The notes under the pieces: model-generated | What the model was told of the DNA's origin: nothing | The model's database searches: none | Seen by the model: only the letters and a program-made list of their open reading frames with translations | Shown: positions 58,899 to 64,000 of the stretch, piece after piece | Position numbering within the stretch: the first letter of the stretch is position 1 | Layout of the letters: each line of letters begins with the position of its first letter | Program-made: the position numbers and the translations under genes | Assembly: GCA_965213925.1 (NCBI GenBank) | Contig: OZ243927.1 | Span: forward strand, 384,001 to 448,000 | Source of the DNA: Trueperaceae bacterium | GTDB taxonomy: Bacteria > Deinococcota > Deinococci > Deinococcales > Trueperaceae | Length of the DNA stretch: 64,000 nt | Direction of reading: 5' to 3'

Positions 58899-59102
58899 TG
58901 CTAATAAGTATCAACACTTAGTCTACGGCGTATTTATATATTCACAAATAGAATAGCGGCTCGAAATCAGCACGTCAACACATCTACCTACATTTTTGCA
59001 CATATGCTCAATCGTTCAACAGCTCAGCGTGAGATACACCTCTTGGGTCTCGAGACAATTTTCATCTTGATATTTCGGCTAGACTTCTATGCTGGGGCAA
59101 CT

Positions 59103-59438
59103 ATGAATAGACCTATCGACAATCCTCCCAACTTAAACCACTTTCGGGGCACTCGGCGCAGCATCCTGACGCTCGTCTGCGGCGTCGCAATCGGCTTCGC
59201 GGCGAGTTCCGACACCCCTCTTCTCTTAGGCGTCGCCTGGCTCTTCGCCGCGTTCGCCTATGCTGAAAAAAGCTACCTCGATGAGCAGTACTCGAGGGCT
59301 ATCATGCTGTGGACGTTCGGCGTGGCTGGCTTAGCAGGGACGCTCCTTGTGCAGCAGCAATATCTGGCGGGAGCCGTACTTGGCGCGTTAGCAGCGGGCT
59401 ACGCGGTGCAGGCGTGGTGGGCTAGGGCACGGGCTTAG
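59103..59438 (+). CDS. Small membrane protein
   Basis: About four hydrophobic segments; ATG at 59103. Confidence 0.55.
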   Translation: MNRPIDNPPNLNHFRGTRRSILTLVCGVAIGFAASSDTPLLLGVAWLFAAFAYAEKSYLDEQYSRAIMLWTFGVAGLAGTLLVQQQYLAGAVLGALAAGYAVQAWWARARA

Positions 59439-59485
59439 CTCGAGCTTCACAATACGACGCTCAATCTTAATGAAGATTGTGGTGC

Positions 59486-59514
59486 TTGACACCTTATGTG
59501 AGGTTTGCTACACT
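59486..59514 (+). promoter_or_regulatory. Sigma70 promoter of the Y RNA/tRNA-rsr-rtcB transcript
   Basis: TTGACA-17 nt-TACACT with extended -10 TG. The expected start near 59521 is 2 nt before the first Y RNA. Confidence 0.85.
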
Positions 59515-59522
59515 TCTAATTC

Positions 59523-59590
59523 GCGGACCGAAGAGACTTCGTTACCTGACTTTCCCTCAGACCTAACCCGAAGTCTCACCACTCGTCCGC
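59523..59590 (+). ncRNA. Y RNA 1 (minimal, no tRNA domain)
   Basis: GCGGAC-C-GA pairs with UC-GUCCGC (bulged C); AGACUUCG/CGAAGUCU upper stem; GUUACC motif; pyrimidine-rich loop. Confidence 0.75.
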
Positions 59591-59640
59591 TAATTTCCAA
59601 GAAAGGGAGACACTCACCGCTTTGTGAGGTCGTGGACGCT

Positions 59641-59772
59641 ATGAATAAACATTTTATACAACCCGAACACGGCTCCATCCTGAGCGCCGAGCCCACCTGG
59701 TTTTTCCAGCGTGCCACCTGGTTTTTCCAGCGTGCCACCTGGTTTTTCCAGCGTGATAGTCGGCGAGCGTAA
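59641..59772 (+). CDS. Candidate 43-aa leader peptide with (TWFFQR)x3
   Basis: ATG with GAGGT ~10 nt upstream; contains three 21-bp in-frame repeats. Confidence 0.35.
   Translation: MNKHFIQPEHGSILSAEPTWFFQRATWFFQRATWFFQRDSRRA
59693..59755 (+). repeat. Three perfect tandem 21-bp repeats
   Basis: CCACCTGGTTTTTCCAGCGTG at 59693, 59714 and 59735. Confidence 0.95.
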
Positions 59773-59851
59773 GGATATTAAGGTGAGTTGGACCCCTCGA
59801 ATATTTTTAACCCCCAAAAACTGAATAGTACTCACCTTAATTTGGAGCTAT

Positions 59852-59988
59852 AGACGGGCCGAAGACGTTTCGTTATCTGGATCATCGTGTTGCGGGTTCG
59901 AATCCCGTCTAGCGTCAGCTAGTAGCTCAAACGGTTAGAGCATATGATGGAGCCTAGCTCCTACCGAAATGTCGTCTCTTGCCCGTTT
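59852..59988 (+). ncRNA. Y RNA 2, classical YrlA topology
   Basis: Ro stem ACGGGC-C-GA/UUGCCCGU; GUUAUC; T arm GCGGG-UUCGAAU-CCCGU; closed acceptor CUAGC/GCUAG; D arm GCUC/GAGC; AUCAU/AUGAU connector. Confidence 0.85.
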
Positions 59989-60054
59989 TCAAAGAAGAGT
60001 TGTCCGCAAGGGCTAACTCACAGGTCTTTATACCCCTCTGAGGCTATTCGCTCT

Positions 60055-60144
60055 GATGGACTGACGCAGTTTGGTTATCTGGATTCACAAGTTCGACTCT
60101 TGACCTAGCGCAAGCTAGCATCCAAACTACGTTCCTTGTCCATC
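60055..60144 (+). ncRNA. Y RNA 3 (T arm plus closed acceptor, no D arm; bulged U)
   Basis: GAUGGAC-U-GA/UUGUCCAUC; GUUAUC; CAAG-UUCGACU-CUUG; CUAGC-GCAA-GCUAG. Confidence 0.75.
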
Positions 60145-60156
60145 TCTACTAGACCT

Positions 60157-60232
60157 GGTGCCATCGTCTAGCGGTCTAGGACTCGAGCCTTTCACGTTCG
60201 CAACAGGGGTTCAAATCCCCTTGGCATCACCA
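60157..60232 (+). tRNA. tRNA-Glu (UUC)
   Basis: Full cloverleaf GGTGCCA/TGGCATC, anticodon loop CT-TTC-AC, T loop TTCAAAT, encoded ACCA. Confidence 0.92.
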
Positions 60233-60243
60233 ACCTAATTTAC

Positions 60244-60414
60244 GATGTGGGCCGAAGCGTGTCCGTTATCGACTTCTAATCGGCAGGTCGCGGGTTCGAC
60301 TCCCGCCCAGCACCCCCAACATGGTGCTGGTAGCTCAGTGGCAGAGCAGCTCGAGCACCACTTGGTTTGGTAGAACCCCAGTGCTCGTTCGGACATTCAC
60401 CCCTTGCCTACATC
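60244..60414 (+). ncRNA. Y RNA 4, permuted tRNA domain with Arg (UCU) anticodon loop
   Basis: GAUGUGGGC-C-GA/UUGCCUACAUC; UCGA-CUUCUAA-UCGG; T arm; CCAGCACC/GGUGCUGG acceptor; D arm. Confidence 0.85.
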
Positions 60415-60419
60415 TTTTC

Positions 60420-60493
60420 AGCGCCATCGTCTAACGGCAAGATTCCTGGTTCTTACCCAGGGGATGAAGGTTCAAATCCTTCTGGCGCTACCA
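60420..60493 (+). tRNA. tRNA with CUU (Lys) anticodon and Glu-like body
   Basis: AGCGCCA/TGGCGCT acceptor, CCTGG-TTCTTAC-CCAGG anticodon arm, 4-nt variable region, encoded ACCA. Confidence 0.88.
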
Positions 60494-60494
60494 C

Positions 60495-60622
60495 AACTAA
60501 GCCGAAGGGCGTTCGTTATCGGTCAGAGCCCCTGAAAAGGGAGGACGCTGGTTCAACTCCAGCCTAGCCGCAAGGCTCAGTAGCTCAGGGAAACAACGCG
60601 AATGTCCACCCCTTGCCTAGTT
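60495..60622 (+). ncRNA. Y RNA 5, permuted tRNA domain with Phe (GAA) anticodon loop
   Basis: AACUAAGC-C-GA/UUGCCUAGUU; GUUAUC; CCC-CUGAAAA-GGG; GCUGG-UUCAACU-CCAGC; AGCC-GCAA-GGCU; UAGCUCAG. Confidence 0.8.
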
Positions 60623-60635
60623 TTATCTCTATCAT

Positions 60636-60783
60636 AGGCGAGCCGATTGGGTTCCGTTATCAGCCTGTCACGCTGGCGGTGCAGGTTCGATTCCTGCCTA
60701 GCCCTCGGGTCAGTCGTCTAAACGGTTAGGACACCAAGTCGGAAGCGATTCCGACATACCGAAGCCCGCCCACTTGCTCGCTT
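60636..60783 (+). ncRNA. Y RNA 6, permuted tRNA domain with Asp (GUC) anticodon loop
   Basis: AGGCGAGC-C-GA/UUGCUCGCUU; GUUAUC; CAGC-CUGUCAC-GCUG; GCAGG-UUCGAUU-CCUGC; D arm GUCU...GGAC; extra GCGA-tetraloop hairpin. Confidence 0.85.
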
Positions 60784-60970
60784 TATCTTACGCGGATAGG
60801 TCGCTGAGTTCTTCTCAAATCCTTTCACCTGTCTGCTTTATCGACGCAAGCTCCAGCTCTTCTGAGCTTGTATCACGCAGATATCATCCCTGAACGTGCG
60901 TGCTAGAGATTGCTTCTTCGGCTGAGCGCGTTTGTGACCAGATGCTACCTGCTTGAAGGAGGTGCTCGAA

Positions 60971-62563
60971 ATGCAAAAGTTCCACAAGCTCTTCTCACCC
61001 ACTAAAACGGCGCAAAACCGCCCGCTGGATAAATCGCAAATCAAGAACAGTGCGGGCGGATACGTCTGGGCGCTGGACCCGTGGAAGAGACTCGAGCGCT
61101 TCCTCATCTTGGGGACGGAGGGCGGCACGTTTTACGTCCGCGAAGCGCCCCTTACAGTGGAGAACGCCGAAAACGTCGTTAAGCTCCTCACAGAAGACGG
61201 CGTCCGTGTCGTCAACCGAGTTGCGGAGGTCAGCATGCAAGGTCGCGCTCACAAGAATGACCCAGCGCTCTTCGTCCTGGCGCTCGCATTCACGGTAGGT
61301 GACGTGGACACAAAGCGTGCAGCGGAAGCGGCGCTGCCTAAGGTCGCGCGTACTGGCACGCACCTCTTCACCTTCATGACCTACGTGAGCGAGATGCGCG
61401 GCTGGGGTCGTGTGCTGCGCCGTGCGGTAGCGGGTTGGTACGCGAGCAAAGATGTATCGGCGCTCGCTTATGGAGTCACTAAGTACGCCCAGCGCGGCGG
61501 CTGGACGCACCGCGACGCCCTACGTTTGGCGCACCCTAAGACGAATGACGCCGAGCGCGACGCGCTGTACCGTTACGTTACGGGGCATAGCGACAAGTTG
61601 AAGGAGGTGAGCGGCGAATGGGTTGACTACTTAAAGGCAGTCGAAGCGGTAAAGGTCGAAACGAACGTGCAAGCGGTCGTGGACGCCATCACGCGCTATA
61701 ACCTGCCGAGAGAGGTCATCCCTACCGAAATGCTTCGCAACAGTCAAGTCTGGGCGGCACTCCTAGCGCGTATGCCTATGACCGCGACGATTCGCAACCT
61801 CGCGACGATGACGCGCGTCGGCTTGCTGACACCTATGAGTGAAGCGTCAGAGGTCATCGCGGAACGCATCAAGAACGAAAAGGCGCTCCGCAAGGCTCGC
61901 GTCCACCCCATCGCCATCCTCGCCGCGCTGATGACCTACAGCGCAGGGCGCGGCGCAAGAGGTAAGGGTGTGTGGGAACCCGTGCAAGAGGTCGTGAACG
62001 CACTCGACACTGCGTTTTACCGCGCGTTCGAGAACGTCGTGCCGACGAACAAGCGCATCCTCATGGGGCTGGACGTATCCGGCTCGATGACCTGGGGTGA
62101 GGTGGGCGGCGTCCCTGGACTCACGCCCCGCGTCGCAAGTGCGGCACTCGCACTCGTCACGGCTTGGGCGGAGCCCAAGCACACGTTCATGGCGTTCTCG
62201 CACGAACTCGTGCCGGTCAAGATTTCGCCGCGTCAACGGCTGGACGACGTGGTGAAGCGCCTGGACGCTCTACCCTTCGGCGGGACGGACACCTCGCTGC
62301 CGATGCGTTACGCGGCGCAAAAGGGACTCGAGGTTGACGCCTTCGTCGTCCTGACCGACAACGAGACTTGGTACGGCAAGCAGCACCCCGCCGAAGCGTT
62401 GCGCGAGTACCGCCGCAAGACGGGTATCCCCGCCAAGCTCATCGTGGTCGGGATGCTCGGCAACCGCTTCACGATTGCGGACCCAAACGACGCTGGCATG
62501 TTAGATGTGGTCGGGTTCAGCACGGATACGCCGACGGTTATCGCGGATTTCATTCGCGAGTGA
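60971..62563 (+). CDS. rsr: Ro60-related TROVE domain RNA-binding protein
   Basis: NSAGGY, RFLILGTEGGTFY, VARTGTHLF, KY.QR.GWTHRD, vWA MIDAS DVSGSM, TDNETW; RBS AAGGAGG. Confidence 0.95.
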   Translation: MQKFHKLFSPTKTAQNRPLDKSQIKNSAGGYVWALDPWKRLERFLILGTEGGTFYVREAPLTVENAENVVKLLTEDGVRVVNRVAEVSMQGRAHKNDPALFVLALAFTVGDVDTKRAAEAALPKVARTGTHLFTFMTYVSEMRGWGRVLRRAVAGWYASKDVSALAYGVTKYAQRGGWTHRDALRLAHPKTNDAERDALYRYVTGHSDKLKEVSGEWVDYLKAVEAVKVETNVQAVVDAITRYNLPREVIPTEMLRNSQVWAALLARMPMTATIRNLATMTRVGLLTPMSEASEVIAERIKNEKALRKARVHPIAILAALMTYSAGRGARGKGVWEPVQEVVNALDTAFYRAFENVVPTNKRILMGLDVSGSMTWGEVGGVPGLTPRVASAALALVTAWAEPKHTFMAFSHELVPVKISPRQRLDDVVKRLDALPFGGTDTSLPMRYAAQKGLEVDAFVVLTDNETWYGKQHPAEALREYRRKTGIPAKLIVVGMLGNRFTIADPNDAGMLDVVGFSTDTPTVIADFIRE

Positions 62564-62620
62564 AACTCTAAGTTCTACACTGAGGCGCATAGGTTCAATG
62601 CCCCTCACTTCTGGAGAATC

Positions 62621-63838
62621 ATGGAATTGACGAAAAACATTTTCGGTCAACACGATGAAAAGACCTTGAAGCAGCTCGAGGACGTAGCGACGAGGGCTGA
62701 TAGAGTCGCCCTCATGTCAGACGGACACTTGGGCTACGTGATGCCCATCGGCGGCGTTGCTGCTTATGACAATAAAGTATCTGTCGCAGGCGTCGGCTTC
62801 GATATTGCGTGCGGGAACGCAGCCATCAAGACGAACTTGACCTTGGAACAACTCGAGCCCAACCTCACCACCCTCGCTGACGAAATCGCCGAGATCATCT
62901 CGTTTGGCGTTGGACGCAAAAACACCTCGGACGACGCGCCTGTGAATGACCCGCTCTTTGAGGACGCCGCTTGGGAAGTTGTCCCCACCAAAAAGGGCGT
63001 GCGCCAGCGTCTTTTAGACAAAGCGCGTAACCAGCTTGGCACGGTGGGCTCGGGCAATCACTACGTGGACGTCTTCGCGGACGAGAAGGGCGTGATTTGG
63101 GTCGGGGTGCATTTTGGCTCTCGCGGTTTCGGTCACACCGTCGCCTCCACCTTCATGGCGCTCCATCAGGGCGGCAAGTGGGGCGATAAGGGTAAGGAGA
63201 GCGAGGCACTTCTCAGCTTAGACGACGAGTTGGGCAAGGACTACTGGGCACTCATGACGCTCGCGGGGCGCTACGCCTACGTCGGGCGCGAGTGGGTCGC
63301 GCGTAAAGTCGTGGAGATTTTTGGGGGGACAGAGCAGGAACTCGTCCACAACCACCACAACTACGCCTGGAAAGAGGTGCATGACGGGCGTGAACTCGTC
63401 GTCGTGCGTAAAGGGGCGACGCCCGCTTTCCCTAGTCAAAAAGGCTTCGTCGGCGGCAGCATGGGCGACAACGCCGTCATTTTACAAGGTCGTGCGGATG
63501 CGGACGACGCAACCAAAGAACAACAAGCGTCAGCGCTCTACTCCACCGTTCACGGCGCAGGTCGCGTGATGAGCCGCACGCAGGCGGCGGGTAAGTGGGA
63601 CTATAAGCGCAAAGTCCGCAAGACTGAGGGGCTAATTTCAACAGAGATGATGCACGATTGGCTCGCCGAGAAAGGGGTCATCTTGCGCGGCGGCGGCTTG
63701 GACGAAGCGCCGCAGGCGTACCGCAGGTTGCCGGGCGTGTTGGCGTCGCAAGGCGCAACGGTTGAGGTCTTGCATACGCTCACGCCGCTTATCGTGGTGA
63801 TGGCAGGGGCGAACGAGTTTGATCCGTATAAGGATTGA
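62621..63838 (+). CDS. rtcB: RtcB family RNA ligase
   Basis: DGHLGY, GFDIACGN, GSGNHY, HFGSRG, HNHHN, HGAGR. Confidence 0.95.
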   Translation: MELTKNIFGQHDEKTLKQLEDVATRADRVALMSDGHLGYVMPIGGVAAYDNKVSVAGVGFDIACGNAAIKTNLTLEQLEPNLTTLADEIAEIISFGVGRKNTSDDAPVNDPLFEDAAWEVVPTKKGVRQRLLDKARNQLGTVGSGNHYVDVFADEKGVIWVGVHFGSRGFGHTVASTFMALHQGGKWGDKGKESEALLSLDDELGKDYWALMTLAGRYAYVGREWVARKVVEIFGGTEQELVHNHHNYAWKEVHDGRELVVVRKGATPAFPSQKGFVGGSMGDNAVILQGRADADDATKEQQASALYSTVHGAGRVMSRTQAAGKWDYKRKVRKTEGLISTEMMHDWLAEKGVILRGGGLDEAPQAYRRLPGVLASQGATVEVLHTLTPLIVVMAGANEFDPYKD

Positions 63839-64000
63839 TTTGCCGCGTCTCCCTTCCTCTTCTGAAGCCTTGGATTTTCAGCGAACAGAGTTTGTCAGCT
63901 TGTCAAGTTCCTGACAAGCTGATCCGCTCGAGCCCACCCCAAAGCGCCCAAGCTGTGACGACGGTGGCGTGAAACGCCACCGCGGTCCACAAGGAGCCGC

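Follow-up and report, generated by a model that had tools for sequence, protein, structure and literature searches.

The locus described here raises the question of what occupies the 1.4 kb directly upstream of rsr, the gene for the Ro60 orthologue Rsr, in a Trueperaceae bacterium (contig OZ243927.1), where a standard annotation would record two tRNA genes and miss six RNA genes, all six of which are also missed by the gathering thresholds of Rfam. The window in what follows is the whole 64,000 nt stretch of this contig that was analysed, and all coordinates are given on its + strand. With a probability of roughly 0.8, six Y RNA genes (U1 to U6) and two interleaved tRNA genes lie here directly upstream of the sole rsr gene and of rtcB, and would work through one processed precursor and through docking of the RNAs on Rsr. 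The units precede rsr on its strand (+) at distances of 189-1449 nt, and a genome-wide TROVE search returned this rsr as its single match. An initial annotation of the stretch had proposed six Y-type units before rsr, with two tRNA genes among them and rtcB following, and this proposal was borne out: a covariance model of the docking module matches exactly six units in the window, with stems that pair and covary, the six unit starts given were correct to within 1-2 nt, and the tRNA and protein genes were confirmed by ARAGORN, Rfam and Pfam.

The evidence that carries this reading is a structural module common to the six units. It consists of a terminal stem of 6-9 bp, a bulged C (U in U3), a GA dinucleotide that pairs with UU or UC, an internal loop and a second helix of 8-9 bp that ends in GUUAYC, while on the 3' side CUUG or CUCG leads into a segment complementary to the 5' end. 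A two-sequence covariance model (R1) was built with a hand-written structure from U1 and its orthologue in a sister species (G001), and was rebuilt from its 12 matches as R2, whose scope runs from the terminal stem with its bulged C through the GA/UU pairs to the second helix. Hand-seeded models were used because MAFFT alignments of the short units misplaced the second helix, and looser regular-expression detectors (the 5' motif plus a 3' partner complementary at 6 of 7 positions) had been dropped for the covariance model on account of their many chance matches. Over the 64 kb R2 found the six units and no further match at E <= 10, and the same six only were returned with filters off at E <= 1 over 58026-64060. 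Units U4, U5 and U6 were outside the training set of R2, yet scored 38.8, 38.8 and 33 bits (E 6e-7 to 2e-5). Searched against the whole genome, R2 gave matches confined to the array, with five of the six units returned because the prefilter lost U4. The primary sequence tells a similar story: the motif RRCYGA-N9-GTTAYC occurs without mismatch at 59526, 59857, 60059, 60250, 60500 and 60641, always on the + strand, and six of its nine exact matches in the 4.75 Mb genome fall within 1.14 kb at the array, compared with two matches for the reversed pattern, so that the motif evidence rests on this clustering and not on the count in the window.

Standard pairs fill 98 of the 102 stem cells of the six window units, with 16-17 of the 17 pairs formed in every unit. 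When 54 units from 24 sources were aligned to R2, 93.6% of the cells paired, as against 67.7% in shuffled data (0 of 500 shuffles as high) and 39-44% with the partners slid, the alignment being fitted to the structure of the model and thus favouring pairing, a bias that the slide control shares while still giving only about 40%. Thirteen of the 17 pairs were altered on both sides, and stem covariation in related genomes, which the initial annotation had named for the terminal stems as a check, is therefore present over these 54 units. Between the window genome and G001, T stems, acceptor-like hairpins and the second helix likewise stay paired through compensatory changes. By its sequence and pairing, the module is the bacterial form of the bulged helix bound by Ro60. 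According to the account of Deinococcus radiodurans Yrn1 in PMC4201824, Rsr protects G7, G8, C9, G11 and A12 of this RNA, and the protected bases as described there correspond to GGC-GA of the conserved GGCCGA in the window units.

Beyond the shared module, the inner domains of the units are truly diverse, since the folds range from a hairpin to a permuted tRNA, in agreement with the diversification put forward initially. U1 joins a 6-bp terminal stem with bulged C and GA/UC pairs to the second helix of 8-9 bp and ends in a pyrimidine-rich apical loop (CUUUCCC); its fold reaches -24.9 kcal/mol (z -4.7), its identity to the G001 orthologue is 93%, and it is of the Yrn2/YrlB type described in PMC4201824. 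A tRNA-like domain in the order known from YrlA (T arm, closed acceptor hairpin, D arm) is full in U2, U4 and U6, partial in U5 and U3, and lacking in U1. U2 carries on its Y stem a 7-bp connecting stem around the T arm (GCGGG-UUCGAAU-CCCGU), a closed acceptor-like hairpin, a D arm (GCUC...GAGC) and then an extra hairpin, with compensatory changes relative to G001. The inner order of U4 is that of a complete circularly permuted tRNA: an anticodon-like arm with a 4-bp stem and a loop, CUUCUAA, identical to that of the genome's tRNA-Arg(UCU), a variable loop (AGGUC), a T arm, an 8-bp closed acceptor hairpin and a D arm. A 37-nt hairpin (60352-60388) of U4 is missing in G001. U6 runs from a tRNA-Asp-like anticodon arm (5-bp stem, loop CUGUCAC) through a T arm and a closed acceptor-like stem to a Glu-type D arm, which resembles that of the array tRNA-Glu, with an extra hairpin after it. 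Compared with positions 24-62 of the genome's tRNA-Asp(GUC), U6 matches at 30 of 38, including the entire loop and a compensated stem pair, and the unit can be read as a fusion of the 3' two-thirds of a tRNA-Asp with the D arm from the 5' side of a Glu-type tRNA. In U5, a GAAA-tetraloop hairpin precedes a T arm (GCUGG-UUCAACU-CCAGC) and a closed acceptor-like hairpin, and of the D arm the 3' half is missing. U3 holds a T-loop-like hairpin (GUUCGACUC) and a CUAGC-GCAA-GCUAG hairpin without D arm. The motif GNCGAAN0-1G is exact in U2, U4 and U5, one base off in U1 and U6, and divergent in U3.

Table 1. Coordinates of the predicted RNA genes, the promoter-like site and the downstream protein genes in the window.
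Feature	Position	Strand	Details
Promoter-like site, sigma-70 type	59486..59514	+	TTGACA, 17-nt spacer, TACACT; TG ahead of -10; 10/12 matches
U1	59522..59591	+	R2 73.6 bits; plain hairpin Y RNA
U1-U2 spacer, 261 nt	59592..59852	+	conserved with G001
U2	59853..59987	+	R2 54.1 bits; YrlA-type Y RNA
U3	60055..60144	+	R2 47.0 bits; short Y RNA
tRNA-Glu(UUC)	60157..60232	+	ARAGORN; Rfam tRNA 56.4 bits; CCA encoded
U4	60244..60414 (R2 match 60246-60412)	+	R2 38.8 bits; permuted-tRNA Y RNA
tRNA-Lys(CUU)	60420..60493	+	ARAGORN; Rfam tRNA 61.2 bits; CCA encoded
U5	60496..60621	+	R2 38.8 bits; partial tRNA mimic
U6	60637..60782	+	R2 33.0 bits; permuted-tRNA Y RNA
Leader, array to rsr, 188 nt	60783..60970	+	Shine-Dalgarno AGGAGG 8 nt ahead of ATG
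rsr, Ro60 orthologue, 530 aa	60971..62563	+	Pfam TROVE 2.1e-44, vWA_Ro60 4.3e-63
rtcB, RNA 3'-phosphate/2',3'-cyclic-phosphate ligase, 405 aa	62621..63838	+	Pfam RtcB 1e-67; start 57 nt past rsr

Besides the bias of the fitted alignment mentioned above, several observations weigh against reading the locus as six Y RNA genes that act with rsr and rtcB. When one mismatch is allowed, the motif is found six times in the window with a shuffle mean of 2.85, and six or more occurrences appeared in 9 of 100 shuffles, which is not significant. No unit reaches the YrlA gathering score of 69, the matches being those of U2 (38.9 bits, model positions 1-114, end to end), U4 (39.0 bits, model positions 24-84) and U6 (23.9 bits, with 25.3 bits to the tRNA model, both sub-cut-off); U1, U3 and U5 had no Rfam match of any kind in array and genome searches, and the Y_RNA model (RF00019) gave none at E <= 10, either over the genome or over the 1.3 kb array alone. 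The check with the Rfam models suggested by the initial annotation thus turned out in part, as YrlA did match three units (E 1e-6 to 0.02), all of them below threshold, and Y_RNA matched none; the genome of D. radiodurans, taken as a control, likewise remained below the YrlA cut-off. The promoter-like site ahead of U1 is the sole match in 59000-64000, with a shuffle mean of 1.6, and as a count it is within chance. Moreover, rtcB stands beside rsr in one of 23 related loci, compared over downstream flanks of unequal length, so that a functional link to RtcB appears weak in this lineage. Finally, not all six units need be functional, because U3 falls far short of the length of its G001 counterpart and U5 combines an incomplete D arm with a stem mismatch.

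It is on this last point that an alternative can be built, in which only some of the units are working Y RNAs and others, for instance U3 and U5, are duplicates in decay that have kept a stem and lost the effector function, the size of the array then reflecting turnover and not a programmed repertoire. We consider this possible, yet clearly the less probable account. The 90 nt of U3 face 176 nt in G001, where the same terminal stem encloses a full T arm, and U5, in addition to its truncated D arm, shows one A.C mismatch in the terminal stem where G001 has A-U. The array of G001 differs further by a seventh unit without counterpart in the window, by an insertion of 96 nt in the U6 orthologue and by the missing U4 hairpin, and unit content varies between genomes in general. 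Against decay stand the stems, which keep 16-17 of their 17 pairs in all six units and preserve them by compensatory change, and the 97% identity of U5 to its G001 orthologue, when the array tRNA-Lys is 85% identical across the same two species. Concerning the sister array itself, the insertion of about 96 nt is located in the T-loop/acceptor region of the U6 orthologue (L038 2950-3191), and about 400 nt between the second and third units of G001 (L038 1815-2234) are without window counterpart and hold T-arm-like sequence. Comparison of the two sequences indicates that insertions and deletions keep reshaping the array even between two species of one genus whose Rsr proteins are 92% identical.

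The reading of the locus as an array of Y RNA genes is also consistent with the distribution of the module in relatives. Among the 101 genomes of the order sample Rsr was found in 15 and R2 matches in 12, and 11 of these 12 also had Rsr. The module adjoins rsr as well in metagenome-assembled genomes labelled Armatimonadota, Planctomycetota-related, Actinobacteria, Gammaproteobacteria and delta-proteobacterium, and is present in a Saltatorellus genome and an actinobacterium. Counting as confident a unit with E <= 1e-3 (E <= 1e-5 for some genomes searched with filters off), the 15 Rsr-bearing genomes hold seven units (G001), six (the window genome), five (G005 and G015, which belong to another family of the order), four (G025), three (G100, G077, G047 and G020), two (G002, G067 and G030) or none at threshold (G065, G060 and G095). 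A Trueperaceae metagenome-assembled genome outside the order sample has three units. The closest named relative by Rsr is a Trueperaceae metagenome-assembled genome (68% identity). The size of the present array is thus at the upper end of the range of its relatives and not outside it. The repertoire had initially been called unusually expanded, and this stands only in comparison with the three species studied in print, for which PMC4201824 describes at least two Y RNAs each; it does not stand against the 0-7 units of the order sample.

The two tRNA genes of the array are separated from the neighbouring units by spacers of 2-13 nt. The tRNA-Glu(UUC) is a second, divergent copy with 72% identity to the other tRNA-Glu(UUC), and the tRNA-Lys(CUU) is the only one of the 46 tRNAs of the genome with a CUU anticodon. 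The latter has a Glu/Gln-type D arm, unlike the tRNA-Lys(UUU) of the genome, and is 85% identical to its orthologue in G001, whose array tRNAs are Glu, Gln and Lys; among paralogues it comes closest to the array tRNA-Gln of G001 (76%).

Regarding transcription, the promoter-like site ends 8 nt ahead of U1, and the start expected about 7-9 nt downstream coincides with the first base of this unit. The same hexamers lie 8-9 nt ahead of the first Y unit in G001 and in a Trueperaceae metagenome-assembled genome (L014, TTGACA-18-TAGACT), and since the site keeps its distance to the first unit in three genomes, U1 probably begins at the transcription start. No terminator-like site was predicted on the + strand from the promoter to rtcB, the only one on this strand being a weak site within rtcB. 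Downstream of rtcB, at 63880-63915, there is an 11-bp inverted repeat (TCAGCTTGTCA ... TGACAAGCTGA) without a T run, which the scan did not call a terminator. The leader between U6 and rsr is about 88% identical to that of G001, continuously into rsr, and its fold is not significant (z -1.59). The radiation-response (RDRM-like) palindrome gave 42 window matches at up to two mismatches, compared with a shuffle mean of 61.9, and the sigma-54 -24/-12 motif gave 13, compared with 25.4, none of either at the array promoter. Genome searches (96.9% completeness) found no match to RtcR (PF06956) or RtcA (PF01137). On the basis of one conserved promoter-like site, the lack of a predicted + strand terminator before rtcB and the precedents below, we infer that the array, rsr and rtcB are co-transcribed.

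Alternatively, the array on the one hand and rsr-rtcB on the other might be separate transcription units, the promoter at 59486 driving the RNA genes only and the two protein genes depending on an unrecognised, possibly stress-induced promoter in the 188-nt leader. Such an arrangement seems to us possible yet less probable; it draws some strength from the scope of the promoter scan, which covers sigma-70-like sites only and whose one match is within chance by count, as well as from the conservation of the leader. In addition, constitutive expression of the array is suggested because it holds the genome's only tRNA-Lys(CUU), in contrast to the UV induction of rsr and its Y RNAs described for D. 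radiodurans (PMC4201824). What tells against two units is that no promoter-like or terminator-like site was found within 60783-60970, and none of the latter past U6, and that polycistronic Y RNA-tRNA precursors are documented: by Northern blots, PMC4201824 detected in D. radiodurans a precursor of Yrn2-tRNAAsp-Yrn1 and in Mycobacterium smegmatis one of YrlA-YrlB.

A co-transcribed array of Y RNA genes would most likely, by analogy with the systems studied in these species, work as follows. The sigma-70-type promoter would start transcription at the first base of U1, and a single precursor would span the array and probably continue into rsr-rtcB. RNase P and the enzymes that process tRNA 3' ends would excise both tRNAs, freeing the neighbouring Y RNAs, each of which exonucleases might then trim to the stem protected by Rsr. 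Through its conserved 5' strand each Y RNA would dock on the outer rim of the Rsr ring, and its inner domain would tether Rsr to a partner, which for the tRNA-like units could be PNPase, as in the RYPER complex of D. radiodurans, or a protein that binds the tRNA elbow; the genome has one PNPase. One Rsr might thereby serve several RNA-decay or repair tasks beside RtcB. The idea of one Rsr programmed by interchangeable RNAs, offered in the initial annotation as an inference from this locus, is the standard published model and not a new inference.

The spacer between U1 and U2 presents features of its own. Its fold has a z of -4.66 here and of -2.30 in G001, with the same architecture and long-range helices, and it contains three exact hairpin-forming 21-nt repeats (59693-59755, TRF) that are single copy in G001. 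An open reading frame at 59641-59772 comprises 43 codons with a threefold ATWFFQR repeat, and 29 codons in G001. This frame was considered as a coding sequence and set aside: four amino-acid changes and two silent codon changes separate it from G001, a substitution pattern that does not favour coding. No homologue was found among proteins of 23-76 residues, nor any Rfam match for the spacer.

An association of Y modules with tRNA genes on a larger scale is seen in the sister family, where four loci (L051 in G005, L052 in G025, L053 in G030 and L056 in G020) have 23-27 tRNA genes on the rsr strand immediately before this gene, with Y modules set among them, of which 2-5 per genome are confident and others weaker. 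These tRNA arrays are flanked by ordinary genes (acetamidase, DUF4127), with a HEAT-repeat open reading frame on the opposite strand inside the array. That of G030 looks like an extra, near-complete tRNA set, because tRNA-model matches number 71 in this genome and 46 and 42 in two Trueperaceae genomes. The array tRNAs of the window show no close similarity to those of the sister-family arrays (72% at most). Within the literature collection searched, no account was found of Y RNA arrays of the present size or of tRNA arrays tied to rsr. That the units might be nothing but repeats derived from tRNAs, or structures that serve the processing of a tRNA operon, without binding to Rsr, is very improbable, for although several inner domains resemble tRNA pieces and the same modules lie within the sister-family arrays of 23-27 tRNA genes, the conserved portion is the non-tRNA stem and not the tRNA-like interior, and this stem occurs almost only where rsr is present (11 of 12 genomes with R2 matches), always on the rsr strand and beside rsr in other phyla too, and contains the bases that Rsr protects in Yrn1 as described in PMC4201824.

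Taking the Y RNA array and its tRNA neighbours together, one may speculate that the region upstream of rsr is a site where effector domains of Y RNAs keep being built from neighbouring tRNA genes, and that Y RNAs with anticodon loops (Asp GUC, Arg UCU) would serve on the Rsr handle as bait for, or sensors of, nucleases that cut anticodons or enzymes that modify tRNAs. We give this joint proposal little credence at present. The layout of U6 is nonetheless of the kind predicted by the model of origin from a 'dimeric tRNA transcript' (Sim and Wolin 2018, cited in 10.1101/312249), and the Y modules within the tRNA arrays of the sister family also agree with the proposal. U4 and U6, both permuted tRNAs that are nearly complete and have the anticodon loop of a cellular tRNA, are relevant to how Y RNAs arose from tRNAs. 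Were the proposal true, the locus, set beside spare Glu/Gln/Lys-type tRNAs and RtcB, would be a response module for tRNA damage. Independently of it, the array offers a small natural set of six different inner domains on one Rsr handle, which is suited to asking which partner each domain recruits.

Published cases already cover this kind of system, where it is placed and how it probably acts, and the nearest of them is in the same phylum. Small RNAs of the rsr locus of D. radiodurans were reportedly described by Chen and colleagues in 2000. The later study of this locus (Chen et al. 2014, PMC4201824) describes the Yrn2-tRNAAsp-Yrn1 precursor together with small RNAs a, b and d; the likeness of the window units to Yrn1 and Yrn2 is drawn here from these published descriptions. 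Both loci have several small RNAs upstream of rsr on its strand, with a real tRNA gene between Y RNAs and no RtcR; a plain hairpin with a pyrimidine loop, Yrn2 there, has its equivalent in U1, and Yrn1, which is tRNA-like with its T arm and potential anticodon arm, has its equivalents in U4 and U6. They differ, as far as the account in that paper goes, in that the canonical docking stem is found in all six units here and only in Yrn1 and Yrn2 there, in that two tRNAs (Glu, Lys) take the place of tRNA-Asp, in that rtcB follows rsr here, and in the loop of Yrn1, which has 6 nt, whereas the anticodon loops of U4 and U6 have 7 nt and are identical to those of cellular tRNAs.

The second known form is YrlA (RF02553), the tRNA-like Y RNA of Salmonella Typhimurium, M. 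smegmatis and more than 250 species (PMC4201824; 10.1101/312249), for which supplementary table S1 of PMC4201824 seems to give a single RNA per species. U2, U4 and U6 share with it the permuted order of T arm, closed acceptor-like hairpin and D arm, the exact GNCGAAN0-1G motif near the 5' end is shared by U2, U4 and U5, and the position of the genes beside rsr is common as well. YrlA as described in these sources is without an anticodon loop, the Y stem replacing the anticodon stem; U2 keeps this layout, whereas U4 and U6 bear an anticodon loop. The scores of the window units moreover fall short of the gathering score of the family, with U1, U3 and U5 unmatched. Among metazoan Y RNAs (RF00019), the 5' and 3' ends similarly pair into a helix that has a bulged C and whose 5' strand is conserved, and PMC4201824 compares the bacterial motif with the GGUCCGA contacted by Xenopus Ro60. 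The window units differ from them by the lack of an RF00019 match and by their tRNA-like domains, which the treatment of metazoan Y RNAs in that paper does not report.

As for the operon, the closest parallel is the RNA repair operon rsr-yrlBA-rtcBA of Salmonella, described as controlled by RtcR and sigma-54 (PMC7790460, PMC9879122; 10.1101/312249). There, as here, rsr, Y RNAs and rtcB form one same-strand cluster, and in G001 too rtcB adjoins rsr (91% identity). Going by these descriptions, the Y RNAs lie between rsr and rtcB in Salmonella and upstream of rsr in the window, and they are two in number there and six here; the window genome has no match to RtcR or RtcA, and sigma-54-type sites in the window are not above chance. 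PMC4201824 and 10.1101/312249 already put in print Y RNAs beside rsr, tRNA-like domains, a tRNA within the cluster and rtcB adjoining rsr. Given these precedents and the counts in relatives, the array is best regarded as one more example of a system already known and as a large one within the usual range; two units with authentic cellular anticodon loops add a modest new detail.

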